A stretch of 64,000 bases of DNA, from contig JACPMV010000002.1 of the NCBI GenBank assembly GCA_016185845.1, forward strand, positions 1,564-65,563. The letters run 5' to 3'. The translations under genes were made by a program, and so were the position numbers. This document shows positions 6,181 through 59,889 of the stretch, in pieces (position 1 is the first letter of the stretch; each line of letters opens with the position of its first letter). Below the pieces are notes generated by a model. It was given only the letters and a program-made list of their open reading frames with translations. It did no database searches and was not told where the DNA came from. This DNA comes from Candidatus Woesearchaeota archaeon. Its GTDB lineage: Archaea > Nanobdellota > Nanobdellia > Woesearchaeales > GW2011-AR4.

Positions 6181-6266
6181 CTTTGATTTTTTTCAAGCCT
6201 CTCTGAGCCGCATCATAAGCTTTATAAATGATTTTCCTCCCTAAAATACAATATAAAAGGCGAATC

Positions 6267-9146
6267 ATGATAAAGAAAAAAATAATCAGCGTAGTCTATA
6301 GCCCGGCAGTCCTTGACCTTTTTCATTATGGGCATCTGCAATCATTAAAATTTGCAAAATCACAGGGAGACTACTATATCTGCGGAATTCTTACAGATAA
6401 GGCAGCCCAATATTACAAGAAAAAACTCGTATCGAATTTTAAGGAAAGAAAGGCTATAGCATCGAGCATCAAGTTTATTGACGAGATAATGGTGCAGGAT
6501 GATACAGATCCTACAAAAAACCTCAAGAAAATATTCCAGCGCTTTAAAGATGCAAAAATAATATTGGTTCACGGCAACGACTGGAGGAAGATACCCGGAG
6601 AAGATTTTGTCAAAAGCATTAATGGAAAAATCCTTACACATCCCTATTACACCGGGCTTTCAGATTTTAAGATAATAAGCAAGCTGCTTGAAAGATACAA
6701 GGACAAGTTTTCCACGTTTGAAGATTTTGTGGGTTATTTCCAATTGAAAGATTTTACTTATTTCAACCCAAGAACGCTTAAAGGAACAATTTTTGCCTCT
6801 AAGGCAGACACTTTACGATTCCTCAAGCCGCTGCTGAAAAAGTCAAACATAGAAGATATGCTTGTTTTTACCGTCCTTGATTGGAAGGAAGAGAAGCGTG
6901 AATTGATAAAAAAAATCAATAAAACATTCAAGAAATCAAAAATAGCAGTCAGGAGCTCTGCTTTGAATGAGGATTCTTCTGAAGGGTCAATGGCGGGATA
7001 TTTTCACAGCGAGCTCAACGTGCCTGCAGACAGCTTTGCAAAGATAGAGGCTGCCGTACAAAATGTCGTGAATTCTTACAACGAGAAGAAATCAGACTTC
7101 ATGATAAACCAGGTGCTTGTGCAGCAGTTCATGGAGAATGCCGCATTAAGCGGCGTAGCATTCACAAGAACAATTGAGAACTTGCCATATTATGTGATAA
7201 ATTACGATGAAAGCGGAAGCACAGACAGCGTTACGAAAGGCATAGAAAACAAGAGCATTAAAATATCCAGGTTTTGCGACCCGAGAGAATATCCCCGGAA
7301 GTTTGCCAGCTTGATGGAATCAATAAAAGAAATTGAAGCAATAATCCCCAACATTGCATTGGACATAGAGTTCGCGGTTAAAAAGTCCGGAGAGGTAACC
7401 ATATTTCAAGTAAGGCCTTTGACTGTAAATCTTGGAGTGCAGATAGAAGATGCGAAAATTAGAGAATCAATCAAGGAACTAAAAGCAAGATTCATAAACT
7501 TATCAAAAAGAAAAGCCCATCTAGCGGGAGACAGCAATATATTCGGCGACATGCCGGACTGGAACCCTGCTGAGATAATAGGAGACTCCCCCAATCACCT
7601 GGATTATTCGCTTTATGATTATGTAATAACCGGAAGCGTATGGCATCAGGCAAGGACTTCACAAGGATATGCCGACGTCAGCCCGGCAAAACTTGTTGTG
7701 TTATTTGGGAATAAGCCATATGTTGATGTAAGGAATACATTTAACTCTTTTATTCCTGCCGGGATAAGCAGGCCGCTAATGGAAAAATTAATGAATTTTT
7801 ATTTTAGCAAGCTTAAAAAAAATCCTGAGCTTCAGGATAAAGTGGAATTTGAAATAGTCTACACATGTTACGACCTTTCTTTTGATAAAAGGGCCAAAGA
7901 GCTTGAGGATTTCGGCTTCTCCAAAAAAGAAACAAACGAAATTAGAAATAATCTTATAAGTTTGACAAACAATCTCATAAGATCCTCAAAGAATTCCATT
8001 TGGAAGGATATGAATGATGTTTTCCAGATGGAGAACAAAAGGCAGGAAGTAAGATCCCGGCATAAGAAGGAAGTCAAACAATTATTAAAAAATGCGAAAG
8101 AGCTGCTTGATGGCTGCAAGATAAACGGGACTTTACAATTCTCAAGGCTTGCAAGGCTGGCTTTTATAGGAAATATACTATTGAAAAGCATGGTAGCGGA
8201 GCATACTATAACCCAAGATGTATATGATTCCTTTTTAAATTCAATAAATACGGTTGCAAAGAAAATGAACAGTGAATTTAATCTTTTTATCCGGGGGAAG
8301 ATATCCCTGGAAGAATTCCTAAAGCACCATGGCCACTTAAGGCCGGGCACATATGACATAACGAGCGCAAGGTACGACAGAAATCCAAAAATATTCAAAA
8401 GCCTTAATGCGCCCAATGTTCAGCATGACAGCCGGACAAATTTATTGCCAGACGCGGCAGTAATGAAAAAAATCAGCAAATCCCTAAAGAATAACGGCAT
8501 AGATGCGAATGCAGAGGATTTTCTCAATTTCGCGAAATCGGCCATTGAAGCAAGAGAACTATCCAAGTTTGAATTTACTAAAAGCCTTAGCGATGCTATA
8601 GAACTTATTGCAGAGGCCGGAGAGCTCCTTGGATTTTCCAGAGCTAAACTTGCAAATCTGGATACTGAAACACTTTTCGGCAGCATAAACATGAAAGAGA
8701 GCAAATCAACCGGATTATGGGCCGATACAATTAAAAATAGGATGGAATCAAGAGCCATAAACGAATTTTTGGCCCTCCCCCCAATAATATTCTCAGAGAA
8801 TGACTTTGACGTTGTAAGTTATTATTCTTCAAGGCCCAACTTCATAACTCAAAAGAGGGTGGAAGCCGACTTAGCAAATATAGACAGCCACAAATACCGG
8901 GATTCAGACCTGAAAGGGAAAATAATTATGCTGGAGAATGGCGATCCTGGCTATGACTGGATATTTACAAAAGGGCCAGCTGGGCTAATTACAAAATATG
9001 GCGGAGTCGCTTCCCACATGTCAATACGCTCTGCAGAATTTGGATTGCCGGCAGCCATCGGATGCGGAGAAATATTTGACAAAATAAAATCGTGCAAGTC
9101 ACTAATGCTTGACTGCAGGCAGAAAAAGATAATGCCGCTCAACTAA
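6267..9146 (+). CDS. Fusion of an HxGH cytidylyltransferase (TagD-like) domain with a PEP-synthase-superfamily swivel-His ATP-dependent kinase, L-glutamine kinase (Cj1418)-like.
   Basis: N-terminus: [17 protein letters not shown] (HxGH nucleotidyltransferase motif). Middle: IAVRSSALNEDSSEGSMAGYFHSELNV and VLVQQFMENAALSGVAFT are hallmarks of the PPDK/PEP-synthase nucleotide-binding domain. C-terminus: GGVASHMSIRSAEFGLPAAIGCG is the PEP-utilizer phospho-His mobile domain about 40 aa from the end. No TIM-barrel PEP-binding domain is present. The start was chosen at the internal Met (MIKKKIISVVY) preceded by aaaagg; the ORF-track start at 6228 is also possible. Confidence 0.7.
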   Translation: MIKKKIISVVYSPAVLDLFHYGHLQSLKFAKSQGDYYICGILTDKAAQYYKKKLVSNFKERKAIASSIKFIDEIMVQDDTDPTKNLKKIFQRFKDAKIILVHGNDWRKIPGEDFVKSINGKILTHPYYTGLSDFKIISKLLERYKDKFSTFEDFVGYFQLKDFTYFNPRTLKGTIFASKADTLRFLKPLLKKSNIEDMLVFTVLDWKEEKRELIKKINKTFKKSKIAVRSSALNEDSSEGSMAGYFHSELNVPADSFAKIEAAVQNVVNSYNEKKSDFMINQVLVQQFMENAALSGVAFTRTIENLPYYVINYDESGSTDSVTKGIENKSIKISRFCDPREYPRKFASLMESIKEIEAIIPNIALDIEFAVKKSGEVTIFQVRPLTVNLGVQIEDAKIRESIKELKARFINLSKRKAHLAGDSNIFGDMPDWNPAEIIGDSPNHLDYSLYDYVITGSVWHQARTSQGYADVSPAKLVVLFGNKPYVDVRNTFNSFIPAGISRPLMEKLMNFYFSKLKKNPELQDKVEFEIVYTCYDLSFDKRAKELEDFGFSKKETNEIRNNLISLTNNLIRSSKNSIWKDMNDVFQMENKRQEVRSRHKKEVKQLLKNAKELLDGCKINGTLQFSRLARLAFIGNILLKSMVAEHTITQDVYDSFLNSINTVAKKMNSEFNLFIRGKISLEEFLKHHGHLRPGTYDITSARYDRNPKIFKSLNAPNVQHDSRTNLLPDAAVMKKISKSLKNNGIDANAEDFLNFAKSAIEARELSKFEFTKSLSDAIELIAEAGELLGFSRAKLANLDTETLFGSINMKESKSTGLWADTIKNRMESRAINEFLALPPIIFSENDFDVVSYYSSRPNFITQKRVEADLANIDSHKYRDSDLKGKIIMLENGDPGYDWIFTKGPAGLITKYGGVASHMSIRSAEFGLPAAIGCGEIFDKIKSCKSLMLDCRQKKIMPLN

Positions 9147-9147
9147 A

Positions 9148-9834
9148 ATGCTATGCGCAATTTCCCAAAGAAATATGAAGATGGGCAATGGCAATAGAGA
9201 TGCGCTCGAGAATAGCTACGTTGAATATTATGAGAAGTTCGGGATTACGCTGGCCCCTATCCCAAATACATCAAAAAATATTGGCGGATATTTCAACAGT
9301 CTGAATGTTAACGGAATTATACTGACGGGCGGCGATGATATTCACCCAAGCCTGTACAGAGGTTCGGCCATAGATGGAAACTACTCAAATGAAAGAGATA
9401 GAACTGAAATTAAACTCCTTAAAATAGCTGTTTCTAAAAGGATTCCGGTTCTGGCAAACTGCAGGGGCGCCCAGCTCATGAATGTTTTTTTTAAGGGAAA
9501 ACTTGTCCAGAATATCAAGGATAAGAATGCGGATAACCATGTTGCAGTCTCCCACAAAATCTCGATTATTGACGATAATGCGCGCAAATTTTTTGGTAAA
9601 AATAATTTTACTGTGAATTCGTACCACAATCATGGCATTGACCGGGAGTCATTATCAAAAAAACTTATTCCTTTTGCAGTTTCCAATGACGGGTTTGTAG
9701 AAGGGTTCTACCATCCAAAGTTTCCGATGGCAGGAATCTTGTGGCATCCCGAAAGGCAAGGCTCTGATAAGGAAGCAGATAGGAAACTGATTAAATCATT
9801 TTTAAACCAAAAGCTGTTTTGGAAAGCAAAATGA
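9148..9834 (+). CDS. Class I glutamine amidotransferase-like hydrolase (peptidase C26 / gamma-glutamyl hydrolase family), Cj1417-like.
   Basis: GATase1 fold motifs: ILTGGDDIHP, catalytic Cys in ANCRGAQLMNV, and His in ILWHPE. It begins 2 nt after the kinase-fusion gene. Confidence 0.7.
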   Translation: MLCAISQRNMKMGNGNRDALENSYVEYYEKFGITLAPIPNTSKNIGGYFNSLNVNGIILTGGDDIHPSLYRGSAIDGNYSNERDRTEIKLLKIAVSKRIPVLANCRGAQLMNVFFKGKLVQNIKDKNADNHVAVSHKISIIDDNARKFFGKNNFTVNSYHNHGIDRESLSKKLIPFAVSNDGFVEGFYHPKFPMAGILWHPERQGSDKEADRKLIKSFLNQKLFWKAK

Positions 9835-10343
9835 GCATAAGGCAGATCGGAGTGGTTTGCTACGGAAATATAGCGAGAAGCCAGGTTCTTGGCATCTATT
9901 TAAAGAAATTTCTGAATGATGAGGGCATCAACAATGTCAGAGTCTACTCTGTCGGAACCGCTCCATACGAAGCTTTTCCAGACACCCCTGTTCTAATCAG
10001 AGAAGTTGGAGAAAAATTGAAAGAAAGGGGGGTAAATTCCACGCCAAGAAGAAATTCTTGGACTGAAGAATCAAGAAAAGAATTAGGGTTATCTGATATT
10101 ATACTAGTTGCAGATGAAAAAAGGAAAAAAGAGGTCATGGGTAGATTAGGATATAAGATTACAAGAGATTGCGTTTATACTTTTTATCAGTTTATCGGCG
10201 AGGGAGAAAAAGGCTTCGAAGATTCCTATGATTATGAAAAAAGGCGCCAGGACCCGGTGAAATTCGGAAAAATCTTCGACGAGCTTGAAAGAATAGCAAA
10301 AAAAGCCGCAGAAAGGATCAAACTGATGCAAAACCTTAATTAA
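9831..10343 (+). CDS. Low-molecular-weight phosphatase family protein (LMW-PTP / ArsC-like).
   Basis: P-loop C-x5-R(S): VVCYGNIARSQ near the N-terminus. Size about 170 aa. ATGA overlap with the upstream gene when started at the Met of MSIRQIG. Confidence 0.6.
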   Translation: MSIRQIGVVCYGNIARSQVLGIYLKKFLNDEGINNVRVYSVGTAPYEAFPDTPVLIREVGEKLKERGVNSTPRRNSWTEESRKELGLSDIILVADEKRKKEVMGRLGYKITRDCVYTFYQFIGEGEKGFEDSYDYEKRRQDPVKFGKIFDELERIAKKAAERIKLMQNLN

Positions 10344-10376
10344 GTTTAAATATACTAATATCTCCTCTTTTTTAAC

Positions 10377-11165
10377 ATGAAAGCAATAATACTTGCGGCA
10401 GGAAGGGGGTCCAGACTTGAAAAATACACGAAAAATATGCCGAAGGGAATGCTCCAGTTTAACGGCAAGTCTTTGATAGGACGGCAGGTTGAAGTTTTAA
10501 GGTCCTGCGGGATTAAAAAAATAGTGATAGTCAGGGGATACATGCCGGACAAAATAAAAATAGCCGGAGTAAAGTATTGCGAAAATAAGGATTACATGAG
10601 CACAAACATGGTTGAGACGCTTTTTGCCGCTGAGAGGGAAATGGATGACGACCTAATAGTCTGCTATTCCGACATAATCTACCAAAAAAGCGTTCTTGAA
10701 AAAGTCATGGCCAGCAATGCCGATATAGGGGTAACTGCAGATGCAGATTATCGGGATTATTGGAAAGCAAGGCTTGACGATCCCCAAACTGATACGGAAA
10801 GCTTAGTAATTGAAAATGGAAATATAATTGAACTAGGGGATACAAACTGCGGAATTGAAAAGGCAAAAGTCAGGTATGTCGGGCTGATAAAATTTTCAAG
10901 AAAAGGGCTCGAAGCTCTGAAAAAAGTCTATCACGAGAATAAAGAAAAATACTACGGCAAAAACGAGCCATGGCTCCGCTCCAAATCATTTAAAATGGCT
11001 TACATGACCTGCATGCTGCAGGCAATTATAAACGCAGGCTATACAATCCAGCCAATAATTGTGCAGCACGGATGGCTGGAATTTGACACAAATGAAGACT
11101 TCGATAAATATAATTTATGGCTGAAAAAAGGCACCCTGGCCAGATTTATAAGCTTAAAGAATTAA
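10377..11165 (+). CDS. LicC-like sugar/phospho-alcohol nucleotidyltransferase (cytidylyltransferase family).
   Basis: MKAIILAAGRGSRL...PKGML is the G-x-G-(R/T)-R-L NTP_transferase signature. Size is about 260 aa, LicC/PntC-like rather than long-form RmlA. Confidence 0.75.
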   Translation: MKAIILAAGRGSRLEKYTKNMPKGMLQFNGKSLIGRQVEVLRSCGIKKIVIVRGYMPDKIKIAGVKYCENKDYMSTNMVETLFAAEREMDDDLIVCYSDIIYQKSVLEKVMASNADIGVTADADYRDYWKARLDDPQTDTESLVIENGNIIELGDTNCGIEKAKVRYVGLIKFSRKGLEALKKVYHENKEKYYGKNEPWLRSKSFKMAYMTCMLQAIINAGYTIQPIIVQHGWLEFDTNEDFDKYNLWLKKGTLARFISLKN

Positions 11166-11173
11166 AATACAGG

Positions 11174-11962
11174 CTATGCCCTTCTAAATTCCAATTCATT
11201 TTTATTCAGCTCCTGCAAATATTTTTTAATTAAGTCCTTATCCCCGTAGATACACTCATATAATCTCCGGTCTTTTGGAATCTTAAATTTTCTTTTTGAA
11301 GGATGCAGCAGCAACTGCGTTTTTTCTGAATTCAAAAGACGCCTGCATTTATCCAAACTCAAATAAGTTCCTGTTTTCCCGCTTACTATAACATCCTTTA
11401 CCGCCTCATTTTTTAATGAGAAGGTATAGTCAAAAACCGCAAGCCTGGATTTTTTTAGAATATCGCAAAATAAATCCTCATCTTCAAATGCATAAAGCAA
11501 AGACACGCCTTTTGCGAAGAATAAATCGCACGGAATAACTGCCTTTTCCTCAAATAGGGCCAGCTTGTAGCCCGGGTGCGTGTAAAAAGCAAGCGTATTC
11601 ATCATTCTGGAATTATCGACGCCGGCAAATAAAATGTCCCTGACATCAAGCTTGCCAAACTTTTTATTTAAGTACTCCAATGAATCAATGGCGCCCATCA
11701 ATGAAGAGCCTATCTCATAATAGACCAATGGGCCTGATGCGCCTTTGCAAGCGCACAAAGCAGAATATTTTTTGAGATTATCATTTAAATCTTCTTCATG
11801 ATGAATATAATCGATATGGCATGTCCTGTAGCCTATTATATCCTTTAGGTACCTTGCTGTCATAAAAAAATCATATGCTTCTTGTCCCTCTTTTACAATA
11901 TAAGGGTGCCTTTTCTCTCCGTCTTTGTAGCCAAATTCCAGATATGTTTTTATTTTACCCAT
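11174..11962 (-). CDS. Hypothetical protein (possible methyltransferase-like fold).
   Basis: 262 aa ORF with good coding character. Weak resemblance of VYYEIGSSLMGAIDSL to a SAM motif I. No confident family assignment. Confidence 0.35.
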   Translation of the reverse strand: MGKIKTYLEFGYKDGEKRHPYIVKEGQEAYDFFMTARYLKDIIGYRTCHIDYIHHEEDLNDNLKKYSALCACKGASGPLVYYEIGSSLMGAIDSLEYLNKKFGKLDVRDILFAGVDNSRMMNTLAFYTHPGYKLALFEEKAVIPCDLFFAKGVSLLYAFEDEDLFCDILKKSRLAVFDYTFSLKNEAVKDVIVSGKTGTYLSLDKCRRLLNSEKTQLLLHPSKRKFKIPKDRRLYECIYGDKDLIKKYLQELNKNELEFRRA

Positions 11963-12076: not shown

Positions 12077-13369
12077 ATGAACAAATTTAATGCCATAACT
12101 GCCGTAATGATCATCATATCTATAGAAATATTTCTTTTTGCATCTTCTTATAAATCCGCTTTTTTTTTTTTTTTTGCATTAATTTCATTGGAACTGTTCT
12201 TTTACCTGCTGATAACCGACCTAAGAAAGGATTTTCAATGGATTATAACCACTAAAGATGAATACCCCCAGATAAATAAGGAAGGATTTAAAAAATTCAT
12301 AAATCACGGGTATGACCCTGAATTAGGATGGGTGAGGAAGCCGAACACCGAAAAAGAGGAGATAGGCAAGTTTGGAAAAACCAAATACCATATCGACTCC
12401 AGAGGCTCTAGGAGCAACCCCGGACACGAAAAACTGCCCAAAAAAATATCATTTTACGGAGATTCTTTTCCATTTGGCAGGCAAGTAAATGACAATGAAA
12501 CATGCCAATGGTACCTGTCAGAATTAACAGAAACAAATGTTCTGAACTTCTGCGTAGGCAACTACGGCCTGGACCAGTCATTGTTAAGGCTAAAACGGGA
12601 ATTCCCAAAAAACAAAACAAAAGTTGTAGTTATGGGGGTTGTACCCTCAACAATTGTAAGGATAATGTGCATGTGGAAGCATTACAATGAATTTGGAAAT
12701 ACATTTGGCTTTAAGCCCCGCTTTATACTTGAAAGGGGCAAGTTAAAATTAATCAAGAATTATATAGACACCGAAAAAAAATTCATGAACTACAAAGATT
12801 GCCTTCCCCAGATCAGGAAATATGACTACTTCTATAAAACAAAATTTCAAAAGGAGATGCTGCAGTTTCCCTATCTTATTTCTGTATTTTGCAATCCTAT
12901 AAGGAATATACCCCTTATTTTTCTTGTTTCTAAATATAAATGGCTTGGAAAGCATAAGAAATTAGAAGCATATCCCGCTCCAATGAATATGATAATGCGC
13001 ATAAACCTGAAACTGCGGGTTGATATGTTCAGGAAGAATGCATCCGCAGTCAGGCTACTAGAAAAAATAATAGAAGAGTTTGCAGGATACGGCAAGGAGA
13101 AAAATTTTATTCCGGTATTCCTGCTGATGCCCCAAAAAGATGATCTGCTGCTTGCAAGGAAAAAAAAGAAAATTTATTATGAAGAGCTTATTAATCATCT
13201 GCAAAACAAAATGTTCGCAATAGATTTAACAAAATATCTTGTGAGCCGCAAAGACCTGGATAAGATATACTCAGATGACAACCAATATGGCGGCCATTAC
13301 AGCAAGTTCGGAAACAAGCTAATCGCTAAAATAATCTATAACAGACTTAAAAAAACGGGAAGCATCTGA
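12077..13369 (+). CDS. Membrane-anchored SGNH/GDSL-like hydrolase or acyl-esterase family protein.
   Basis: N-terminal TM helices, then ISFYGDSFPFG (a GDS block). Contains a T16 homopolymer at codons 28-33. Confidence 0.45.
   Translation: MNKFNAITAVMIIISIEIFLFASSYKSAFFFFFALISLELFFYLLITDLRKDFQWIITTKDEYPQINKEGFKKFINHGYDPELGWVRKPNTEKEEIGKFGKTKYHIDSRGSRSNPGHEKLPKKISFYGDSFPFGRQVNDNETCQWYLSELTETNVLNFCVGNYGLDQSLLRLKREFPKNKTKVVVMGVVPSTIVRIMCMWKHYNEFGNTFGFKPRFILERGKLKLIKNYIDTEKKFMNYKDCLPQIRKYDYFYKTKFQKEMLQFPYLISVFCNPIRNIPLIFLVSKYKWLGKHKKLEAYPAPMNMIMRINLKLRVDMFRKNASAVRLLEKIIEEFAGYGKEKNFIPVFLLMPQKDDLLLARKKKKIYYEELINHLQNKMFAIDLTKYLVSRKDLDKIYSDDNQYGGHYSKFGNKLIAKIIYNRLKKTGSI
12160..12175 (+). repeat. T16 homopolymeric tract inside the coding sequence of the SGNH-like gene (codons 28-33, Ala-Phe5).
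   Basis: Sixteen consecutive T from 12160 to 12175, read directly. It is the longest homopolymer seen in the window; other runs are 9-10 nt or shorter. Confidence 0.9.
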
Positions 13370-13417: not shown

Positions 13418-14248
13418 TTATTTGCCGCCAAATAAGGCCTTATAGTGCTGCTCCGCTGCCCTGCCCTTGTAATGCACGAGAAAAGACACAACTTGCTTTA
13501 AAATAGCGCCAACAGCATAAATTAACAAGTACCAGTAGAATAATATATAGCTTGGCATAAAGTTATAATGCAGGTTTATCAATTCTATAATTGAAATAAC
13601 AGTTAAATGAAGTATATTGGTCGGAGCAGCCCAAAAATCTTTGAATTTATTATAAATATCATTCAGTTTTTTTCCGGTGTCGCTGCCCTGCAAATTAACG
13701 CTCTTCCTGCCTACATTTTTAATATGCCTGCTTTTTATGCGATCCAGGGCAGCATCGCCATGCAGCTTGCTGTTGACTACGGCAGACAGCATGCTGGGAA
13801 TCACGACAGATTTAGAGAATACCGAGCATAAAAATCCAAAAATAAGCACAGATTTCCACCCGGTTTGCAGGAATACTCCAAAAGCCAGGGGGAAAAACAT
13901 AAGATAAGATACCAGCTCGTGGTATATATTCTCCAAATGCACTCCGGTTAAGCTTGATTTTTTCCTGTACCGCGCTATTTCACCATCCACGCAATCCAGC
14001 AGATTCGTAAATTGGATAATCATTATTCCGGCAAATATGCAGCTTAGCTTGCCAAAAAATAAAAAAATGGAACTGAGGAACACCAGAAAAAACTCAATAA
14101 TAGTCACATGATTTGCCTCTATCTTTGTATGCAAGAGGAGCCAAGTAACGTAGATAGAAAGCTTGCTTACATACTTGTTAAACCAAACCCTATATGCATA
14201 TGGGCTGTCATAGCATATTATCCGCAATTGCTTTATAGATTCAACCAT
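13418..14248 (-). CDS. CDP-alcohol phosphatidyltransferase family membrane protein.
   Basis: Multi-TM protein with DCVDGEIARYRKKSSLTGVHLENIYHE, a variant of the D-G-x2-A-R-x8-G-x3-D-x3-D motif with acidic residues E/E in place of the last two Asp. Confidence 0.5.
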   Translation of the reverse strand: MVESIKQLRIICYDSPYAYRVWFNKYVSKLSIYVTWLLLHTKIEANHVTIIEFFLVFLSSIFLFFGKLSCIFAGIMIIQFTNLLDCVDGEIARYRKKSSLTGVHLENIYHELVSYLMFFPLAFGVFLQTGWKSVLIFGFLCSVFSKSVVIPSMLSAVVNSKLHGDAALDRIKSRHIKNVGRKSVNLQGSDTGKKLNDIYNKFKDFWAAPTNILHLTVISIIELINLHYNFMPSYILFYWYLLIYAVGAILKQVVSFLVHYKGRAAEQHYKALFGGK

Positions 14249-20183: not shown

Positions 20184-22043
20184 ATGGAATTTTTCAGCAT
20201 AGCATTTTTTTTGGCTGTACTGTACGGTTTTGGTAGCTCTATCTCTTTCATAGCAAAGGAATCAGAGGATTTTCTTGAAAGGCACCTTATGAGATTTGGA
20301 ATCGGATTGGGAATAATGCCTGCTTTCGGGCTTTTGCTTAACCTGTTAAGAGTTCCATTAGACTGGAGAATTTTTATTATATCCAGCTTGCTGATACTAT
20401 TAGTTAGATATTATTTAGATTACAAAAATAATAATCTTTTCAATGCAAAATTCAATCTCAACCTTTATTCTGTTTTCATGCTTGTTTTATTTGCAATAAC
20501 GCTGTACATGTACACAGCAGGATCTTTTGCGTATCCTTATCTTGAAGATGATGACCCGTGGAGCCACGCAATGGGAGTCAAGTATGTCTCAATAGAAAAG
20601 ACAGTATTTACAGCCCAGCCAATTTTCCATTATATTGACCCTTATCCCCCAACATATGACATGCTGATGGGAATAATACACCAGACAAATGACTCTGTTT
20701 ACTGGACGCTGAAATTTTTTAACGCATTCATAATATCATTAAGCATAATTTTCTTTTATTTCTTCGCTAAAGAATTTTCAAAAAGTTCGAAAAAAGCGCT
20801 GTTTTCAACATTTGCATTGTTTGCAGTGCCGGCATTTCTAAGCCATTTTATATGGGCATTGGCTTTGACAGTTCCTCTTTATTTCGTTTCTTTTTACTGC
20901 ATTGAAAGGATAAATCACGACAAGAAGTGGTGGATTGGGGCTACAGCAGTTATGATAACGACTTTGACATCATCACCGACGCACAGCACTTATTTTGGAT
21001 TGTTTTTTGCATTATACATTATTGGAAGATTTATTGCTGAAAGAAAGATACTGCTGTATGAAACTATTGCCGGACTAAGCGGCCTGGCCATTTCATTTGT
21101 TTTATGGTGGCTCCCAATACTGGCAAAACACGGCCTAACAAGAACATTGCAAATTCTTGGCATAGGCGGTACGCGAGGCAATGCCAGCATATTCAATGTG
21201 CTCGGAACAGGCGACAGGGTTTATACTCTTTCAGATTTTTTATGCCAGCCCGGAACGCCGTGCTATAACGGCCAGAATATGATAAATAATCCCATTGGGA
21301 TAGGATTGATACTTTCTATTTTGGCGGTGATGGGCATTATTTATCTGGCCATGAAATACAAAGAGATGCTTAGCAGAGAGAACTATTACAAATTCGTGAT
21401 TCTGCTGTGGCTTGCGCTGGCATTTTATGCTGTTAATGCGGCAAAATTCCCGATAAAGATATCCCCATTCAGGGCCTGGATGCTCCTGGCAATTCCAGTA
21501 TCCTTACTGGCAGGGGAGTCAATTAATTTTATCAATAATATGTCTAAATCATTAACAAGAGATTTTACAAAATCAAAAAATGCAGTTATTTCTGTATCAC
21601 TGATAGTCCTTATTGCCCTCAGCTTTGGGATATACAAGACTTCATTTGAGCCAAAATACAAGGTCAATACGGCAAACTGGCCTCCCGGCGCCTTCTGGAC
21701 ATCAAACGACGAAATAAGCGGCTATATTTGGCTTAAAGACAGCATACCGAAAGGCTCAAGAGTTTTTACTTTTGCCAATAATGCGCCTATCATAGCATTT
21801 GACAAGTTCACATGCTACTGGTGCCCTGAAGTAAGGGATTTCCAGAAAAACGGCATAAACAAAACGCCTGATGAGATATATTCATGGCTGAAGCAGAATA
21901 AGTACCAGTACCTTATTGTAGACGGGCAGACCATTCGAAAATTCGGGGCAAATGATACAAATATCATGCTGTCTTCTCTTGGATCAAAATTTAACCTGCA
22001 GCCGGTACTGCAAAATAACGGCATGATCATCCTGAGAATATGA
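20184..22043 (+). CDS. GT-C fold polytopic membrane glycosyltransferase (PMT/ArnT/GtrC-like).
   Basis: 619 aa with about 12+ TM and an acidic loop (YLEDDDPWSH) near the first extracytoplasmic loop. Divergently paired with the GtrB-like GT2. Confidence 0.45.
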   Translation: MEFFSIAFFLAVLYGFGSSISFIAKESEDFLERHLMRFGIGLGIMPAFGLLLNLLRVPLDWRIFIISSLLILLVRYYLDYKNNNLFNAKFNLNLYSVFMLVLFAITLYMYTAGSFAYPYLEDDDPWSHAMGVKYVSIEKTVFTAQPIFHYIDPYPPTYDMLMGIIHQTNDSVYWTLKFFNAFIISLSIIFFYFFAKEFSKSSKKALFSTFALFAVPAFLSHFIWALALTVPLYFVSFYCIERINHDKKWWIGATAVMITTLTSSPTHSTYFGLFFALYIIGRFIAERKILLYETIAGLSGLAISFVLWWLPILAKHGLTRTLQILGIGGTRGNASIFNVLGTGDRVYTLSDFLCQPGTPCYNGQNMINNPIGIGLILSILAVMGIIYLAMKYKEMLSRENYYKFVILLWLALAFYAVNAAKFPIKISPFRAWMLLAIPVSLLAGESINFINNMSKSLTRDFTKSKNAVISVSLIVLIALSFGIYKTSFEPKYKVNTANWPPGAFWTSNDEISGYIWLKDSIPKGSRVFTFANNAPIIAFDKFTCYWCPEVRDFQKNGINKTPDEIYSWLKQNKYQYLIVDGQTIRKFGANDTNIMLSSLGSKFNLQPVLQNNGMIILRI

Positions 22044-38659: not shown

Positions 38660-41335
38660 TTAAGCTTGGCCGCGGCCGTACTTCAATAAAGCAACAAAAA
38701 ACAGCGAGCATGCAATAACGGCAATCAATGAGACAACACCGAATAGCTTCTCTTTTAAAACTATATCATACTTTAATGTTATGACATTCCCTTTTATCGT
38801 TCTTACCATTATCATGTTGAAATTAGTCGGATATAATGGAACTTCCCTATTGTTCATGGATGCCTTCCATCTTGGAAAAAACTCTTCCTTGAAGACAGCA
38901 AATTCATTGTCATTAAATTCCCCGTATATCTCTACAAGCTGCGGGTTTTTTCTGCTGAAAGTCAATGGTATAGGCTCCGCCGGCACTTTATCCTGGGCAT
39001 AATCCAAGGCCTTCTTTGGATTGGCAAAATCATACCTTTCAAGCGGACTTACTGTCACATATTTATAACCCTCTTTTGCCTTGTAAACATCCTTATCGAC
39101 ATTCTTCAATACACTCACTTTTTCAGCGTAATTAGTGCCGTTCACCATAAGAAATACCATGCACTGATTTTGGTATAAAGGTGTTGTGTGATTTGGATAC
39201 ATTTTGAATAGGACAGCATTACCGACAGGATGGCATATATTAAGGAACAGGTATTTGTAGCCGCCAAGCCTGAGGTAATTGCTCATCTCAGTGCCCGATA
39301 TCGTATAAATTCCCGGGAACTCTCCGAATGAATGGCTTGTGTGCAGCATGTCATAGATGTTGTTGAGCTCAGACCACAGATTATACTGATATCTTGTGAA
39401 GTAATGCCCGGTATTGTAAGCCATTCCGGGATCAACTGCATTGGAAAAAAGCCCGTATGTAATGAATCTCCCGTCATTTGGCAGGCTTCTTACAAAATCC
39501 ATTTCGCCTTTTAAAGTTCCCTCAGAGATTATCTGCTCCGCGTGTATATTATCGAGATTTATCCTTGAGTAATAAACATTATGAAGCAGGAAGCCTGCAA
39601 ATACTGCAATCAGTATTGTGCGCGCTTCTTTAGACTTGAAAGAATCAAAGGATGCGGCTATGGATGCGGAGAGCACTACAACTGTATAGGGAAGTATTAT
39701 CCTGTAGCCGGTCTCCAAAGTCCCCATATTGAAAGTAGCTGTTATGAAGTAATATAGGATAAACTGCACTATGAATGTGACTGCAAACAATCCTGCTTTT
39801 CTTAGTTTTTCGCTCTTTAGATTGAATATCACATAAAAAAAAGCAATGCTTCCTATTACCGACAGGAAAAATCCGGATTCTTTGGTATCCAGCCGATTAA
39901 GATCAGGATATTTTATCGAGAACGGAACAATGCCCGGATTTGTGAAATAATCCCTCGTATAAGGAAAAAAATTCTTTAATACCGGCGCTTTGTTGAAGAG
40001 CCCCCTTGGATGCTCCCTTATATAATCATCGTAACTGGCACCTACAAGAGTGTAAGCGAACGCAACTCCAAGAAATATTATGGCTACAAGCGCAACTTTC
40101 CATTTATTCTTCAGCATGTAATTAATTCCATCCCGCATTGATTGCCTGTCTCCGACATATACTACCAGCAAAAGGGAGAATGCGAATACCCACACCCCAA
40201 TGGCCTGTATTACGTGCACCATATACGTCATTACAAGCAGATAGCCCATAATGAACCATTCTGCTGCCTTTTTTGGCTTGGAAAGTATCATTGCAAAAAG
40301 AAGAAGATTTATCGGATGCGCAGAGAATGACTTCAGGCTTTCAAGTATCCTGACAAACTGGAAGCTCAGGCCTATTGCAAGGCTGCCCAGAATTATGAAA
40401 TAAACAGAGTGCCTGCTGCTGTTGCTTCCATTTATTGCAAGCACCTCTTTAAGGAAGACAGCGGCTCCAAGAACCACCATCCAAAGTATAAACATGCTAT
40501 GGGAGTTATAGATAAGCAGCGCATCAAACCATTGCTTTAGAAGAATAGTGGATACTACCAAGATATCCTTTGTGAAATGCAAAGGAGAATCAGTTAGGAA
40601 AAGCTGCTCGCCCATCCCTATGCCCGGGTCGTATTGCGGGAAGAAGCCAAATTTTTCTATATTATTTATAATAAAAGCCTGTTTTGTGTAAATTTCAGTT
40701 GCATTTGAAGTATGCAGGCTGCTGCTGTTGTAAATGACGCTCATGACAAAGAACATCAGGAACAAGGTTCCAAGCAAAATTTTGTAGTCTTCATTGCTCA
40801 TTGAAAAAACGCCTTTAACGGCATCTTTTCCATTCTTCCTTACAAAAACATAATAGGCTATTGACAGAAAAACAGCAATAACGGCAATTATGAAATATGC
40901 GCTAATTTTGATCCCAAGCACATTCGGGTAGTAAACGACAAGCCTGACAACATGAGTTACTGCAAATCCAAGCACGTAGCTTTTGATAAAAGTAGGGTTT
41001 TCCAGAACTGTGCCGAACACAAGGAAAGGGATATAGAAAATGAAAAAAACAAAAAATGGGGGGAATGGCAAGGTTGCTATTGAAATATAAATTAGGTTTT
41101 TTATGCCCGGTTCAAGCTTAGACCCAAATATGACAACCAAGACAGCTATGGACAGGGGAATATAAAGGAAACTCTTGAGTACAAGAGACAACAGGATTAA
41201 ATAGGCTACTATAAGCAAGTCGTTCAGTTTTATCTTCATGCTACCCCGGCTAATGAAATAATTAACTATATTTAAAGGATTTGGTTGATTATCGGAGCTA
41301 TGTTTATGAAATTTATGGTACGTAAAATTCTTCAA
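38660..41335 (-). CDS. Large polytopic membrane protein with C-terminal soluble domain (GT-C-like, YfhO-like candidate).
   Basis: 891 aa: about 560 aa with more than 12 TM followed by about 330 aa of soluble domain. No WWDYG (STT3/AglB) motif was found. Confidence 0.4.
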   Translation of the reverse strand: MKNFTYHKFHKHSSDNQPNPLNIVNYFISRGSMKIKLNDLLIVAYLILLSLVLKSFLYIPLSIAVLVVIFGSKLEPGIKNLIYISIATLPFPPFFVFFIFYIPFLVFGTVLENPTFIKSYVLGFAVTHVVRLVVYYPNVLGIKISAYFIIAVIAVFLSIAYYVFVRKNGKDAVKGVFSMSNEDYKILLGTLFLMFFVMSVIYNSSSLHTSNATEIYTKQAFIINNIEKFGFFPQYDPGIGMGEQLFLTDSPLHFTKDILVVSTILLKQWFDALLIYNSHSMFILWMVVLGAAVFLKEVLAINGSNSSRHSVYFIILGSLAIGLSFQFVRILESLKSFSAHPINLLLFAMILSKPKKAAEWFIMGYLLVMTYMVHVIQAIGVWVFAFSLLLVVYVGDRQSMRDGINYMLKNKWKVALVAIIFLGVAFAYTLVGASYDDYIREHPRGLFNKAPVLKNFFPYTRDYFTNPGIVPFSIKYPDLNRLDTKESGFFLSVIGSIAFFYVIFNLKSEKLRKAGLFAVTFIVQFILYYFITATFNMGTLETGYRIILPYTVVVLSASIAASFDSFKSKEARTILIAVFAGFLLHNVYYSRINLDNIHAEQIISEGTLKGEMDFVRSLPNDGRFITYGLFSNAVDPGMAYNTGHYFTRYQYNLWSELNNIYDMLHTSHSFGEFPGIYTISGTEMSNYLRLGGYKYLFLNICHPVGNAVLFKMYPNHTTPLYQNQCMVFLMVNGTNYAEKVSVLKNVDKDVYKAKEGYKYVTVSPLERYDFANPKKALDYAQDKVPAEPIPLTFSRKNPQLVEIYGEFNDNEFAVFKEEFFPRWKASMNNREVPLYPTNFNMIMVRTIKGNVITLKYDIVLKEKLFGVVSLIAVIACSLFFVALLKYGRGQA
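41316..41331 (+). repeat. Left copy of a 16-nt imperfect direct repeat TGGTACGTAAARTTCT flanking the DUF4258/DUF2283 gene pair.
   Basis: TGGTACGTAAAATTCT at 41316-41331. The partner TGGTACGTAAAGTTCT is at 42268-42283 (15/16 identical). Confidence 0.5.
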
Positions 41336-47432: not shown

Positions 47433-48176
47433 TTACTTCTTATTTTTCCCGTTTCTGTTTTCCAAATTCCTCATCATTATTGATGCCCTTAATAATGAGT
47501 CAAAGCTTCCGGCATCTGACCAGAATTTCCTTATTTTGTTGTAATAAAGCTGCCCTTTCTTTACATACGCGTCCAGGGCGTCTGTTACCTCTATTTCATT
47601 TCTCCATGAAGGCTTTAGCTTGCGTATTATGCCAAATACCTTGGAATCAAACATGTAAAGCCCGGTCATAGCAAGGTTAGATTTTGGCTTTTTGGGCTTT
47701 TCCTCGACATAAGTTACCTTGCCGTCGTTGACAAGCGCTATCCCGAATTTTTTTGCATCTTCCATGCTTACTTCCTTCAGGAATATCCTAGCGCCTTCCT
47801 TCTGCTTTTCAAACTCTTTTACATAAGGAGCTATGTCTTCCTCGAATATATTGTCGCCAAGTATGACAACGCATTTGTCATCACCCACAAAATCCTTTGC
47901 CAGTCCAAGAGCCTGGCCTATTCCGCCGGCTTCTTCCTGTATCTCATAGGTGAAAGTGGCATCAAAGTTTTTTCCTGACTTCAGCAATTTAAGAAAGTGA
48001 CCTGCATGATCTGGTCCGGATATTATCAATATATTTTTTATTCCGGCCTTCAGCAGGGTATGCAGAGGGCAGTAAATCATCGGTTTCGAATAAACCGGGA
48101 GCAAATGTTTATTTGTAACAAGGGTTAATGGATTTAATCTAGTTCCTGTTCCACCAGCAAGAATAATTCCTTTCAT
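47433..48176 (-). CDS. rmlA: Sugar-phosphate nucleotidyltransferase, short-form glucose-1-phosphate thymidylyltransferase-like.
   Basis: MKGIILAGGTGTRLNPLTLVTNKHLLPVYSKPMIY is the RmlA/NTP_transferase N-terminus. Operon context with rmlB and rmlC. Confidence 0.75.
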   Translation of the reverse strand: MKGIILAGGTGTRLNPLTLVTNKHLLPVYSKPMIYCPLHTLLKAGIKNILIISGPDHAGHFLKLLKSGKNFDATFTYEIQEEAGGIGQALGLAKDFVGDDKCVVILGDNIFEEDIAPYVKEFEKQKEGARIFLKEVSMEDAKKFGIALVNDGKVTYVEEKPKKPKSNLAMTGLYMFDSKVFGIIRKLKPSWRNEIEVTDALDAYVKKGQLYYNKIRKFWSDAGSFDSLLRASIMMRNLENRNGKNKK

Positions 48177-49081
48177 TTTTCTAATATCTCCTTAATATCA
48201 AGATATTTTTTATATTTCCTATCAAGATGTAATATACTATCACGATATAGCCAATCAAATATTCTTAATGCCTGCCTATTTCCCCTATATCTTAATGCCC
48301 AATGGTTTTCGTTTTTAATATTTTGTGTTAATTTAACCATGTTCAAGTTTAAATATTTTATTAAAAAATACTGTATATCCAACAATATTTCTTTTGTGCC
48401 AACTATTTGAAACAATAAAGAATTCTTTTTATAGATGATGCTACCATCTCCCTCAAAAAATCCTTTAATGAATGATCTAACAATTTCTTCATTATCGGAA
48501 ACCTTAATTATTTCGGGAAAAAGCTCCTTTTTTGTTTTGCTTTCAGTAACGCCTAAATTCTCTAGTCTCCTTACAAGATATTTGCTAGATATTTTTAATA
48601 ATGATTGTTCATAGTATTTGTTTGTTCTCTTTAAGAAATCCTTATTTATAAAAATCTTTCCAGTATATCCAAGTAAATTCTTAATTTTTGTTAGAACTTC
48701 TATATCCTTCCTACTTAGCTTTAAGCCGAAAGAATGAGAATTTTTGGTTTTATTTATAAATCCATCACTTAATATCCACCCAAGTACCCAAGCATTATTT
48801 TGGTTAATATCATCAAAGAAATTCATATTAACTTCGTATTTTCTTGCATCTAATTTATATGTTTTATCCCTAATTGGTATCTTGTATTTGCGTAATCTTT
48901 GGCTTATGACCCATTGTGAGACTCCAAGGCTCTTTGCAATCTGATCTTGGGATTTCTTTCTTAGAATATATTCTTCAACCAAAAATTTCTTTGATATATC
49001 ATAACTATTCTTAATTCTCTCAGTGAAATTATCGCTGTTATTTATGTTTCTAAAATTTCCGTAAATGTTTTCAACTTTCAT
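48173..49081 (-). CDS. Free-standing double-motif LAGLIDADG homing-endonuclease-like protein with N-terminal HTH.
   Basis: Two LAGLIDADG motifs (VLGWILSDGF and IKGFFEGDGSI) plus HTH SQDQIAKSLGVSQWVISQRLRKY. ATGA overlap with the downstream rmlA-like gene. Confidence 0.6.
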   Translation of the reverse strand: MKVENIYGNFRNINNSDNFTERIKNSYDISKKFLVEEYILRKKSQDQIAKSLGVSQWVISQRLRKYKIPIRDKTYKLDARKYEVNMNFFDDINQNNAWVLGWILSDGFINKTKNSHSFGLKLSRKDIEVLTKIKNLLGYTGKIFINKDFLKRTNKYYEQSLLKISSKYLVRRLENLGVTESKTKKELFPEIIKVSDNEEIVRSFIKGFFEGDGSIIYKKNSLLFQIVGTKEILLDIQYFLIKYLNLNMVKLTQNIKNENHWALRYRGNRQALRIFDWLYRDSILHLDRKYKKYLDIKEILEK

Positions 49082-53874: not shown

Positions 53875-53903
53875 TATTGGTTTCCTACTGTTTCCTAATC
53901 AAA

Positions 53904-55271
53904 ATGAATGCAATACTGCTGGTTGTAGATTCTTTACGGGCGGACCACCTTGGAATATCTGGCTATAAAAGAGATACAAGCCCGAATATAGACCGGCTTG
54001 CAAGAGACGGAGTTTTCTTTTCATCAGCTATTCCGACTTCGCCAAGAACCAGCCCTTCGGTAGGCTCACTTCTTACCGGGCTTTATCCCCATTCCCACGG
54101 GCTGAGGCTGGAGGGGAAAAATAAAGCCAGATTTGAATCTATCAATGTTGTAGACAGGCTAAATAAAAATGCAGTTACAATACAGGAAATCCTAAAATCT
54201 CACGGATACGCTACAATAGGAAATGACATAGAAATGGACAATACCGGGATTGAAAAAGGCTTTGACGAATTCAATTTATTAAAGTGGCGCGTTGCCAACA
54301 AGATAAAAAGGACAATAAAAAAAGCCGTCAAATGGAATTATAATATAGACCCTGCAGAGACTTTAACTGATTTTGCAATAAATCAAATCAAGAAATTAAA
54401 AGACAGGAAATTTTTCTTATACCTCCATTATGTCGGGCTGCATTGGCCTTATACTCCGCCAGAGCCTTATGATGAAATGTTTGACACCGATTATAGAGGA
54501 AACCACACCTTTAATGAAGTCAATGGCAAGATAAACAGGGGAGACCTGATATTTAACAATAGCCTGCCAAAGGAAGAGATTAAACATGCCATAGCCCACT
54601 ATGACGGAGCAATAAGATTTGTAGACGGGCAGATAGGCAGGCTAATCAGCCATCTGGACAGCCTTGGCCTACGCGAAAATACATTGATTGTACTGACTGC
54701 AGACCATGGAGAATGCTTTGGAGAGCATGGGCTTTGCTTCAATCATGGCGAGTACCTCTATGAAGAAGCTGCCAGAGTTCCGCTTATCTTTTTGTATCAC
54801 AAATCTCCTAAGAAAAAGATAGACACCCAGGTGCAATCAACAGATATTATGCCAACAATTCTAGACATTCTTGATATTGAATTAATCGAGAATATAGAAG
54901 GCGCCAGCCTTATGACCTTAGTTAAAGATAATGACAAAGTCAGAGAATATACTTTCGCCGAAAGCGGCATGTCGTTCTTCAAGGAAGACAAGAGGCGCTA
55001 TATGGGAGGAATAAAGGGAAAATGGCGCATGATAAGAACAGACGAATGGAAGCTAATCTATATCCCTCATCCCCAAAAGGACATATTTGAGCTTTACAAC
55101 CTGAAAGATGACCCAATGGAAACAATAAATCTGTTTGAAAAAAATGCCGAGATAGCCAATAAGCTCAGGGAAGAATTGTTTAAATGGATGAAAGACTCTG
55201 ACTCAAGCGAAGACATGGACTTGACTGAAAAATCAAAGAAACTGCTAAAAAAGCTCGGGTATATCGACTAA
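53904..55271 (+). CDS. Sulfatase-fold (alkaline phosphatase superfamily) protein with Thr in place of the FGly cysteine; LtaS/EptA-type phosphotransferase or hydrolase candidate.
   Basis: LLVVDSLRADHLG (metal site), TSPSVGSLLTGLYP aligning to sulfatase CSPSRASLLTGRYP with Cys replaced by Thr and Arg by Val, and LTADHGE (DHG motif). The start was moved to the internal Met of MNAILLVVDSL. Confidence 0.65.
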   Translation: MNAILLVVDSLRADHLGISGYKRDTSPNIDRLARDGVFFSSAIPTSPRTSPSVGSLLTGLYPHSHGLRLEGKNKARFESINVVDRLNKNAVTIQEILKSHGYATIGNDIEMDNTGIEKGFDEFNLLKWRVANKIKRTIKKAVKWNYNIDPAETLTDFAINQIKKLKDRKFFLYLHYVGLHWPYTPPEPYDEMFDTDYRGNHTFNEVNGKINRGDLIFNNSLPKEEIKHAIAHYDGAIRFVDGQIGRLISHLDSLGLRENTLIVLTADHGECFGEHGLCFNHGEYLYEEAARVPLIFLYHKSPKKKIDTQVQSTDIMPTILDILDIELIENIEGASLMTLVKDNDKVREYTFAESGMSFFKEDKRRYMGGIKGKWRMIRTDEWKLIYIPHPQKDIFELYNLKDDPMETINLFEKNAEIANKLREELFKWMKDSDSSEDMDLTEKSKKLLKKLGYID

Positions 55272-55296
55272 TCCTATAAGAAAATTTATAAAGCTC

Positions 55297-56469: not shown

Positions 56470-56479
56470 TTAAACAGAT

Positions 56480-56833
56480 TTATTCCTGTACATACTCAGC
56501 TCCGGTTGCAAGGCAAATTTCAGCTTTCTTCAGCTCTTTTCCCAGATATGCGGCGTGCTCCAATCTTGTCAGCCAGCGCTTGTTATTTTTTTGGCTATAA
56601 TCAAAAATCGACGTATACAAATCCTGCGCTCTTTTCCCCACGAATTCCTTAAGGATTGTATGGGTGTAATCGCAGATCGCAACCCCTATCTCGAGAGTGT
56701 CCGGATAAATTCTTATCAAAACATAGCATCCTTTATCAATCCTGAAATCCTTATTTGTGTACTTTTTGGCTTTGATTACCTCAAAACTTTTTGAGTATTT
56801 CTGCTTCTTAACCCATTTTGGCATTTCTGTCAT
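56480..56833 (-). CDS. Hypothetical protein.
   Basis: 117-aa ORF with coding-like composition. No recognisable family. Confidence 0.3.
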   Translation of the reverse strand: MTEMPKWVKKQKYSKSFEVIKAKKYTNKDFRIDKGCYVLIRIYPDTLEIGVAICDYTHTILKEFVGKRAQDLYTSIFDYSQKNNKRWLTRLEHAAYLGKELKKAEICLATGAEYVQE

Positions 56834-56917
56834 GCATTAAAGGAAGATTATTCCCGATTTAAAACTATTGGTAAAAACATCAAAAAGGCGAACCGAAACC
56901 TTTAAATACTATTACTA

Positions 56918-59888: not shown

Positions 59889-59889
59889 A

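Follow-up and report, generated by a model that had tools for sequence, protein, structure and literature searches.

Why would an ultra-small archaeon keep, among its surface-glycan genes, a glutamine-kinase-like enzyme fused to a cytidylyltransferase (CTase)? The question is raised by a 64-kb stretch of DNA, called the window here, from a metagenome-assembled genome (MAG) of a Candidatus Woesearchaeota organism (DPANN); all positions follow the numbering of this whole stretch. Within a surface-glycan island that spans at least 60 kb and also encodes Wzx, GT2/GT4 and sugar-nucleotide enzymes, a tight operon at 6267-11165, on the forward strand, encodes the fused kinase, a C26-family hydrolase, a protein with the low-molecular-weight (LMW) phosphatase fold and a separate CTase of the NTP_transf_3 family. 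The answer that we favor, and regard as likely, is that this operon makes cytidine diphosphoramidate (CDP-NH2), an activated phosphorus-nitrogen (P-N) group, by the route of Campylobacter jejuni.

The proposed pathway

In C. jejuni, the enzymes Cj1415-Cj1418 turn glutamine, ATP and CTP into CDP-phosphoramidate 3'-phosphate (PMC11800397). The parts of the operon in the window that would follow this logic are the following; PEP stands for phosphoenolpyruvate, ORF for open reading frame and aa for amino acids.

6267..9146, forward strand: fused HxGH cytidylyltransferase and glutamine-kinase-like gene (PF01467, PF01326 and PF00391; NF004508); the ORF opens at 6228
6267..6722, forward strand: N-terminal HxGH cytidylyltransferase domain, aa 14-165 (FHYGH at 6321-6335; PYYTGLS variant at 6645-6665)
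6786..9143, forward strand: kinase portion, aa 187-972, with ATP-grasp, central substrate domain and C-terminal swivel (NF004508; no PEP/pyruvate barrel)
9015..9017, forward strand: codon of His930, the predicted phospho-histidine in GGVASHMS (invariant in homolog alignments)
9148..9834, forward strand: C26 / class I amidotransferase-fold hydrolase, predicted gamma-glutamyl-CDP-amidate hydrolase, Cj1417-like (PF07722, NF045546)
9831..10343, forward strand: LMW-phosphatase-fold gene with CYGNIARS P-loop and DP motif (PF01451, 1.4e-8)
10377..11165, forward strand: LicC/PntC-like NTP_transf_3 cytidylyltransferase (PF12804, fold match, synteny)

All of the pathway steps are deduced from homology and synteny. 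The kinase part would use ATP to phosphorylate His930 of its swivel domain, and a CTase would place CMP from CTP onto N-phospho-glutamine, giving CDP-L-glutamine. The conserved candidate for the latter step is the LicC/PntC-like protein encoded at 10377-11165, and the fused HxGH domain may do so too, or instead. The C26 hydrolase would then cut the gamma-glutamyl amide by means of a Cys-His-Glu triad, producing CDP-NH2 and glutamate. The exit step is more tentative: a hydroxyl of a glycan or lipid would receive the phosphoramidate from an enzyme of the CDP-alcohol phosphotransferase family (13418-14248), with CMP set free, and an SGNH-fold membrane protein (12077-13369) may contribute.

Evidence from the three core proteins

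The forward ORF at 6228-9146 has 972 aa. Because the NCBI model of the protein (P0001, 'hypothetical protein HYX06_00180'), which is 100% identical, has 959 aa and the homologs align from Met14, the true start of the gene is probably at 6267 (Met14), for a product of 959 aa; residues are numbered here by the 972-aa ORF. The Pfam search returned CTP_transf_like (aa 30-119, 2.5e-10), PPDK_N (aa 222-319, 6e-14) and PEP-utilizers (aa 896-965, 2e-10), and no PEP-utilizers_C/TIM-barrel domain (PF02896). A preliminary description of this stretch, which had read the ORF as an HxGH CTase joined to a barrel-less enzyme of the PEP-synthase superfamily, is borne out by these matches to PF01467, PF01326 and PF00391. 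The motifs also lie where it had put them (FHYGH at 32-36, VRSSALNED at 241-249, SGVAFT at 308-313, GGVASHMS at 925-932), and the phospho-His candidate, residue 930, is 42 residues before the C-terminus.

The kinase portion matches the NCBIfam model NF004508 (PRK05849) along its full length, aa 187-971 aligning to profile positions 9-788 of 789 with 861 bits (cutoff 501); an Aeromonas member of the family reaches 888 bits. The models for PEP synthase, pyruvate phosphate dikinase (PPDK), prodigiosin ligase and rifampicin phosphotransferase (RPH) give 16-60 bits on the kinase, over the shared ATP-grasp or swivel parts only. Five of its closest homologs carry the name 'glutamine kinase' from the JGI pipeline, which is based on KEGG Orthology (KO). 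His930 is invariant in the homolog alignments, bacterial members included, and the core motifs do not vary in the Azospirillum, Vibrio, Aeromonas and Leptospira proteins. Cj1418 itself has been reported to use dikinase chemistry, with formation of AMP and Pi.

The gene at 9148-9834 starts 1 nucleotide (nt) past the TAA stop of the kinase, not 2 nt as described earlier; its placement in the C26 family stands (Peptidase_C26 PF07722, 3.6e-37 / GATase). Its best NCBIfam match is NF045546, the model for gamma-glutamyl-CDP-amidate hydrolase, with 93 bits, and the triad (Cys105-His200-Glu202) that the same description proposed to look for is present and conserved in 66-67 of 68 homologs.

The LicC-like gene announced two genes past the C26 gene is the NTP_transf_3 gene at 10377-11165. 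The AlphaFold2 model of its product has a pLDDT of 95, and the best Foldseek matches of this model in the PDB are PntC, an inositol-1-P CTase and LicC; G9, G11, R13 and K23 of the GxGxR...K signature are invariant. One homolog with 69% identity has the JGI name 'L-glutamine-phosphate cytidylyltransferase', and no NCBIfam model for Cj1416 was among the matches of the protein.

How widespread is the module?

Genome contigs were scanned with the patterns DMPDWNP and EFTKxLSDA, which gave 84 confirmed hits, none of them from Campylobacter, and returned 77 loci. Module mapping covered 78 related loci, and a subset of 51 has full flanks, i.e., at least 5 kb on each side. The hosts of the scanned loci are DPANN archaea, members of the candidate phyla radiation (CPR; Taylorbacteria, Levybacteria, Saccharimonadales), Nitrosopumilus, Omnitrophota, Scalindua, Leptospira, Aeromonas, Balneolaceae, Saprospiraceae and several Proteobacteria, to which tblastn added Azospirillum, Vibrio, Agrobacterium and Cupriavidus plasmids. 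No relative was present in the viral contigs scanned.

Across the 78 loci, archaeal and bacterial, the order kinase > C26 > NTP_transf_3 is nearly invariant. In the full-flank subset the C26 gene is present, directly downstream of the kinase, in 51/51 loci and the NTP_transf_3 gene in 49/51. This order agrees with that of the Campylobacter operon, which we take to be kinase, hydrolase, CTase (Cj1418-Cj1417-Cj1416). On plasmid p6 of Azospirillum lipoferum, genes for an APS (adenosine 5'-phosphosulfate) kinase, an S-adenosylmethionine (SAM)-methyltransferase, the kinase, C26 and the CTase stand together, presumably the same set of gene types as at the Campylobacter locus. Gene fusions point the same way: C26 is fused to NTP_transf_3 in one Pacearchaeota locus (L020, 12888 onward), and an APS-kinase + CTase + kinase fusion of 1130 aa is found on metagenomic DPANN-like contigs (L001 10001-13393), both of which support a functional link between the genes. 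Together with the full-length NF004508 match, NF045546 as the best model for C26 and the intact residues, this synteny agrees with the earlier reading of the locus as a P-N donor module.

The fused cytidylyltransferase domain

If a separate CTase gene is part of the trio, what is the second CTase, fused to the kinase, for? Motifs suggest an active enzyme: H, G and H of the HxGH motif are invariant in an alignment of 12 sequences and at least 97% conserved in 118 homologs, and the second motif is a PYYTGLS variant (PYYxGLS for the RTxGISTT type) with invariant Ser and Lys. The domain is present in every non-truncated protein among the 120 best kinase homologs. It is an addition to, and not a substitute for, the gene in the Cj1416 position, as judged by gene content, because 27/28 HxGH-fused loci retain a separate NTP_transf_3 gene. 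For the same reason, the idea that the fused CTase replaced the Cj1416-like gene was rejected. Since NTP_transf_3 is kept in fused and non-fused loci alike (22/23 of those without the HxGH fusion), it is the LicC/PntC-like gene that is conserved in the Cj1416 position. The channeling of phospho-glutamine to CDP-glutamine through the fusion, put forward in the preliminary description, is unproven, and it is not needed.

The HxGH domain is one of several N-terminal partners. Among the 150 best cluster representatives, 30 kinases start with HxGH, 54 with an NTP_transf_3-like domain, 2 with an APS kinase and 2 with an unidentified extension, and 62 have none. The NTP_transf_3-like domains, of ~240 aa (P0385-P0507; L053-L058, L063, L072, L074, L077, L080; L083 6443-9340), have a degenerate GxGxR...K signature and may be pseudo-enzyme domains. 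Thus, the kinase has gained an N-terminal nucleotidyltransferase or pseudo-nucleotidyltransferase repeatedly. Such a domain might serve to channel the labile N-phospho-glutamine, to dock the stand-alone CTase or to carry out another cytidylylation.

Does the fused domain belong to P-N chemistry at all? It might instead make a CDP-alcohol or a CMP-phosphonate for the adjacent phosphotransferase, so that the fusion would co-regulate two decorations. We regard this possibility as doubtful; it is a reading of the fused domain alone and does not conflict with synthesis of CDP-NH2 by the rest of the operon. The closest solved structures (ECT, TagD and the CTase domain of Fom1; PDB 5x3d, Fom1, aligns to aa 22-153 at 3.9e-9) belong to enzymes that take glycerol-3-P, ethanolamine-P and hydroxyethylphosphonate, and the Cj1416 role is already covered by the separate NTP_transf_3 gene. 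Moreover, the window has a stand-alone HxGH CTase (56918-57478, forward strand) that is 47% identical (1e-45) to the N-terminal domain of the kinase, matches fused domains of other loci up to 1e-65, has a short N-terminal extension of ~38 aa and lies in a phosphonate cluster beside a Fom1-like CTase-PEP-mutase fusion; this Fom1-like protein is 29% identical to the fused HxGH domain. In Fom1, the substrate of the CTase domain is an intermediate formed further along the pathway than the mutase product. The HxGH fusion also co-occurs with CDP-alcohol phosphotransferases of the CDP-OH_P_transf family (15/30 vs 4/21 loci, p about 0.04), but this figure, like all co-occurrence statistics given here, ignores phylogenetic non-independence, and half of the fused loci are without CDP-OH_P_transf. 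The operon contains no kinase or synthase for a substrate of the glycerol-P or ethanolamine-P type, and fusion partners usually share one pathway.

An apparent anti-correlation of the HxGH fusion with APS kinase (5/28 vs 11/23 loci) shrank in a broader count of APS-kinase homologs (9/30 vs 10/21, p=0.25) and is not relied on.

Is glutamine the substrate of the kinase?

The likeness to Cj1418 could be architectural only, in which case the kinase would act on another amide, a gamma-glutamyl compound or an alcohol rather than on free L-glutamine, and the CDP-activated product would be a different one. The window kinase and the bacterial members share just 34-46% identity, its link to Cj1418 goes through family models, names and synteny, and the accessory genes (formyltransferase-like pair, HIT, sulfatase-fold) vary widely among the loci. 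However, with distant bacterial members, which include those from clusters with APS kinase and methyltransferase, the window kinase has ~120 invariant positions in common, many of them in the central domain, which argues for a common substrate. That a gamma-glutamyl-type hydrolase is invariably linked to the kinase speaks for an intermediate derived from glutamine, and the KO-based name is glutamine kinase. Another substrate is therefore, in our judgment, unlikely.

How may the donor be used?

Past the trio, three neighboring genes come into play, two of which could bring the pathway to its end.

11174..11962, reverse strand: 262-aa protein, found in 5 other DPANN loci of the module
12077..13369, forward strand: membrane-anchored SGNH/GDSL-fold protein from a family without annotation, a candidate for an accessory or transfer role
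13418..14248, reverse strand: membrane protein of the CDP-alcohol phosphotransferase family (PF01066, 9e-8) whose motif is the variant DxxDGxxARx8Gx3Ex3H, a candidate for the exit step from a CDP-linked donor

The 262-aa protein had no match in Pfam, NCBIfam or the PDB.

In C. jejuni the donor carries a 3'-phosphate. A profile hidden Markov model (HMM) built from 27 APS kinases of the loci found no Cj1415-type homolog in the 64-kb window (E<=10), as the preliminary description had held, and the window is also without a sulfotransferase-fold gene. Because both are missing, the donor is probably used without 3'-phosphorylation in this organism. Elsewhere, an APS-kinase-fold gene lies within 8 kb in 19/51 related loci, and sulfotransferase-fold genes co-occur with it (8/19 vs 1/32 loci, p=8e-4; e.g., L048 12415-13398, L043 13077-14078, L022 18314-19177); in Leptospira, the sulfotransferase-fold gene lies between the kinase and C26. 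This pairing fits a 3'-phospho donor resembling 3'-phosphoadenosine 5'-phosphosulfate (PAPS), for which the sulfotransferase-fold enzyme is a candidate phosphoramidate transferase.

In the position of Cj1415, the same description had seen the LMW-phosphatase-fold gene (9831-10343). Its ATG overlaps the C26 stop (ATGA), and the NTP_transf_3 gene begins 33 nt past it. The CX5RS loop and DP motif are intact, and the PDB matches are LMW protein tyrosine phosphatase and YwlE (weak). As a conserved replacement of Cj1415 it has been rejected: only 2/78 loci, the window and L016, have such a gene, a lineage-specific accessory.

What remains for the window is the CDP-alcohol phosphotransferase candidate (PF01066 with 33 bits, cutoff 22). 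The module-linked members of this family (L005, L016-L019, L024, L026, L031, L032, L047, L049, L060, L061, L070) mostly have the motif DxxDGxxARx7-8Gx3[DE]x3H, in which the final Asp is replaced by His, a variant common to archaeal and Scalindua/Omnitrophota loci, and the family is enriched in HxGH-fused loci. Scalindua and Omnitrophota have a six-gene operon (APS-kinase / SGNH / kinase / C26 / CTase / CDP-OH_P_transf), with NTP_transf_3 as the sole nucleotidyltransferase; in Vibrio alfacsensis, the gene after the trio encodes a TagF-like CDP-glycerol glycerophosphotransferase. The SGNH-fold family of 12077-13369, with 863 homologs, no name and no Pfam domain, adjoins the kinase in ~20 loci of archaea and bacteria; the model of the protein has two N-terminal helices and an SGNH fold, and its GDS motif and His407 are invariant. 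These neighbors suggest, with low confidence, that the phosphoramidate may be moved straight from CDP-NH2 with release of CMP.

Might the true donor be a CDP-amino acid? The pathway could end at, or also use, CDP-L-glutamine or a related conjugate, with the phosphotransferase installing N-phospho-glutamine and C26 in charge of editing or recycling. The linkage of CDP-X phosphotransferases (CDP-OH_P_transf, TagF-like) to the module would suit this, two CTases per module could mean two CDP-linked donors, and FtaD of Clostridioides difficile with its CDP-N-methylthreonine is an experimental precedent. However, CDP-OH_P_transf is present in only about 37% of the loci, whereas C26, with its triad intact, comes right after the kinase in every complete locus, which fits an obligatory step as shown for Cj1417 (PMC11800397). 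We consider such a donor improbable, slightly more so than a kinase substrate other than glutamine.

The last alternative, in which the large ORF is a metabolic enzyme of the PEP synthase/PPDK type or an RPH-like antibiotic kinase, shares with these enzymes the PPDK_N ATP-grasp and swivel His domains (and with RPH the three-part architecture and C-terminal His domain), and it is rejected as extremely improbable on architecture (no PEP/pyruvate-binding domain), on scores (16-58 bits against cutoffs of 456-1700, over shared domains only; at most 58 bits for PEP-synthase models, whose cutoffs are at least 598), which is also how this counter-reading raised in the preliminary description fared, and on a gene context of glycan biosynthesis.

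Synthesis of CDP-NH2 by the trio can be extended to a broader proposal, which as a whole is doubtful. DPANN archaea and many CPR and other bacteria would decorate surface glycans or lipids with a P-N group independently of Cj1415; the CTase-fused kinase, C26 and LicC-like CTase would make the donor, and the fused HxGH domain would channel labile N-phospho-glutamine. The His-variant CDP-alcohol phosphotransferases would use this donor directly, CMP being released, possibly together with the SGNH-fold family, and the same islands would install phosphonates.

Points that weigh against the proposed pathway

Several observations count against the proposed pathway. To begin with the names, NF004508 is labelled 'hypothetical protein', NCBI's annotation pipeline (PGAP) calls members of the kinase family only 'PEP-utilizing enzyme', and other homologs of the NTP_transf_3 protein have the JGI names 'choline kinase' and 'PEP phosphomutase'. 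The link of the trio to Cj1418, Cj1417 and Cj1416 is drawn from NCBIfam models, third-party names and synteny; among the matches of PDB searches with the module proteins there was no Cj1416-1418 entry, and the literature searched contained nothing on PRK05849. The C26 protein, with 93 bits, is under the equivalog cutoff of NF045546 (250 bits). This model appears narrow, because Aeromonas sanarellii and Leptospira ilyithenensis, in which the cluster has the full set of four gene types with the APS-kinase-fold gene included, have C26 proteins that likewise score 92 and 108 bits.

On the side of the accessory functions, the fused HxGH CTase, apparently active by motif, is an extra that the pathway does not account for. 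The window has no methyltransferase orthologous to those beside the bacterial kinases. In the candidate exit enzyme, DGEIARx8GVHLENIYH stands for DGx2ARx8Gx3Dx3D, the last two Asp being E and H, and the CDP-OH_P_transf family is found in just 19/51 loci.

Relation to known systems

The closest comparison is with the C. jejuni pathway for O-methyl phosphoramidate (MeOPN), with which the window shares a barrel-less kinase of the PEP-synthase superfamily, a C26 hydrolase, a LicC-like CTase and the setting of a glycan island. The differences are in what surrounds this core: a Cj1415-type 3'-kinase, a sulfotransferase-fold gene and a linked methyltransferase of bacterial type are all missing from the window, and the neighbors of the operon are the CDP-alcohol phosphotransferase variant and the SGNH-fold membrane protein. 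In addition, its kinase has the extra HxGH domain, its C26 protein is below the NF045546 cutoff and its host is a DPANN archaeon. A 2019 review names Campylobacter as the sole genus in which MeOPN had been found on glycans (PMC6429109).

An archaeal parallel is provided by genes 308-311 of the Cobalt Borg, an extrachromosomal element of Methanoperedens, where a glutamine kinase, a C26 protein and a Cj1416-like CTase were predicted by structure search only (bioRxiv 10.1101/2024.11.05.622173). There, too, the trio stands side by side, and a CTase-PEP-mutase fusion and phosphonate genes are part of the glycan region. In the Borg, however, the HxGH-type CTase beside the kinase is fused to PEP mutase, whereas the copy in the window is fused to the kinase, and the phosphonate cluster of the window is ~47 kb from the kinase. 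The preliminary description had supposed that, outside Campylobacter, no such pathway had been described in an archaeal-type glycan island. This does not hold: a MeOPN-type cluster was proposed in that 2024 preprint, and the kinase family itself counts 1,524 clusters at 50% identity reaching E<=1e-30. Archaeal clusters are thus already pointed to, by the preprint and by the automated KO-based naming of some DPANN homologs. The literature searched appears not to describe a kinase fused to a CTase, the alternative exit enzymes, or how broadly and invariantly the trio occurs.

The logic of the proposed exit has a counterpart in the Type A flagellar glycan of C. difficile, where a LicC-like CTase (FtaB/CD0242) turns a small phospho-compound into a CDP conjugate and a phosphotransferase (FtaD/CD0244), shown by experiment to use CDP-N-methylthreonine, brings the phospho-group to a sugar with release of CMP. 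This system differs from that of the window in its donor, CDP-(N-methyl)threonine with a P-O bond, and in its transferase, which is TagF-like and not of PF01066; neither a PEP-synthase-type kinase nor a C26 hydrolase is involved. Fusions of the Fom1 type likewise have the HxGH CTase fold N-terminal to an enzyme of phosphorus chemistry, but the partner in the window is a kinase instead of PEP mutase, and PYYxGLS takes the place of RTxGISTT. RPH and PEP synthase are alike in having ATP-grasp and swivel phospho-His domains and unlike in that the window protein has no match to a PEP/pyruvate- or rifamycin-binding domain.

The wider island and other observations

If the proposed pathway is true, biological decoration of glycans or lipids with P-N groups reaches ultra-small symbiotic archaea and many uncultured bacterial phyla, and such surface decoration may be far more widespread than its demonstration in a single bacterial genus suggests. 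The comparison also offers leads that are absent from the literature searched: two exit strategies (APS-kinase with sulfotransferase-fold enzymes vs CDP-X phosphotransferases), recurrent N-terminal (pseudo)nucleotidyltransferase fusions, and an unannotated SGNH-fold membrane family tied to the pathway. An island with both P-N and phosphorus-carbon (C-P) decorations, which are unusual, could also matter for how DPANN archaea attach to their hosts and evade phages.

The C-P side of this island is a phosphonate cluster at 53877-61778 on the forward strand, with two sulfatase-fold proteins, the stand-alone HxGH CTase, the Fom1-like CTase-PEP-mutase fusion (57475-58773), a thiamine-pyrophosphate-dependent decarboxylase (58770-59888), an Fe-alcohol dehydrogenase (59890-61026) and an NTP_transf_3 paralog (61023-61778) that is 35% identical to the protein of 10377-11165. 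The pairing of P-N and C-P genes in the window mirrors that of the Cobalt Borg element.

Other genes accompany the kinase in the related loci. A ~190-aa protein and a ~240-aa formyltransferase-like protein, sometimes fused, abut it in 26 loci, including those of Aeromonas and Leptospira (e.g., L066 8702-9983, L048 8710-9986, L010 14838-16193). In nine DPANN loci (L010, L016, L021, L024, L026, L030, L050, L052, L056), HIT-family genes lie between C26 and the CTase, often accompanied by an unannotated 290-aa gene; HIT enzymes include nucleoside phosphoramidases. A fusion of a pyruvate-kinase barrel, a PUA-like domain and ATP sulfurylase is present in 11 kinase loci, often by the APS-kinase gene (L045 15093-17336). 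The window was searched for homologs of the formyltransferase-like pair, HIT, c14, c24, the methyltransferase cluster and the pyruvate-kinase-ATP-sulfurylase fusion, and none were found.

Fused genes of the DPANN type (50-66% identity), in DPANN-like surroundings, also occur in many MAGs named 'uncultured Methanosarcinales archaeon' (binchicken; L005, L006, L009, L014, L015 and others), which suggests that these labels are a taxonomic misassignment. As for the remainder of the glycan island, two ORFs of 619 and 891 aa (20184-22043, forward strand, and 38660-41335, reverse strand) have no Pfam match, and a LAGLIDADG_3 homing-endonuclease-like ORF (48173-49081, reverse strand) is lodged between sugar-nucleotide genes.

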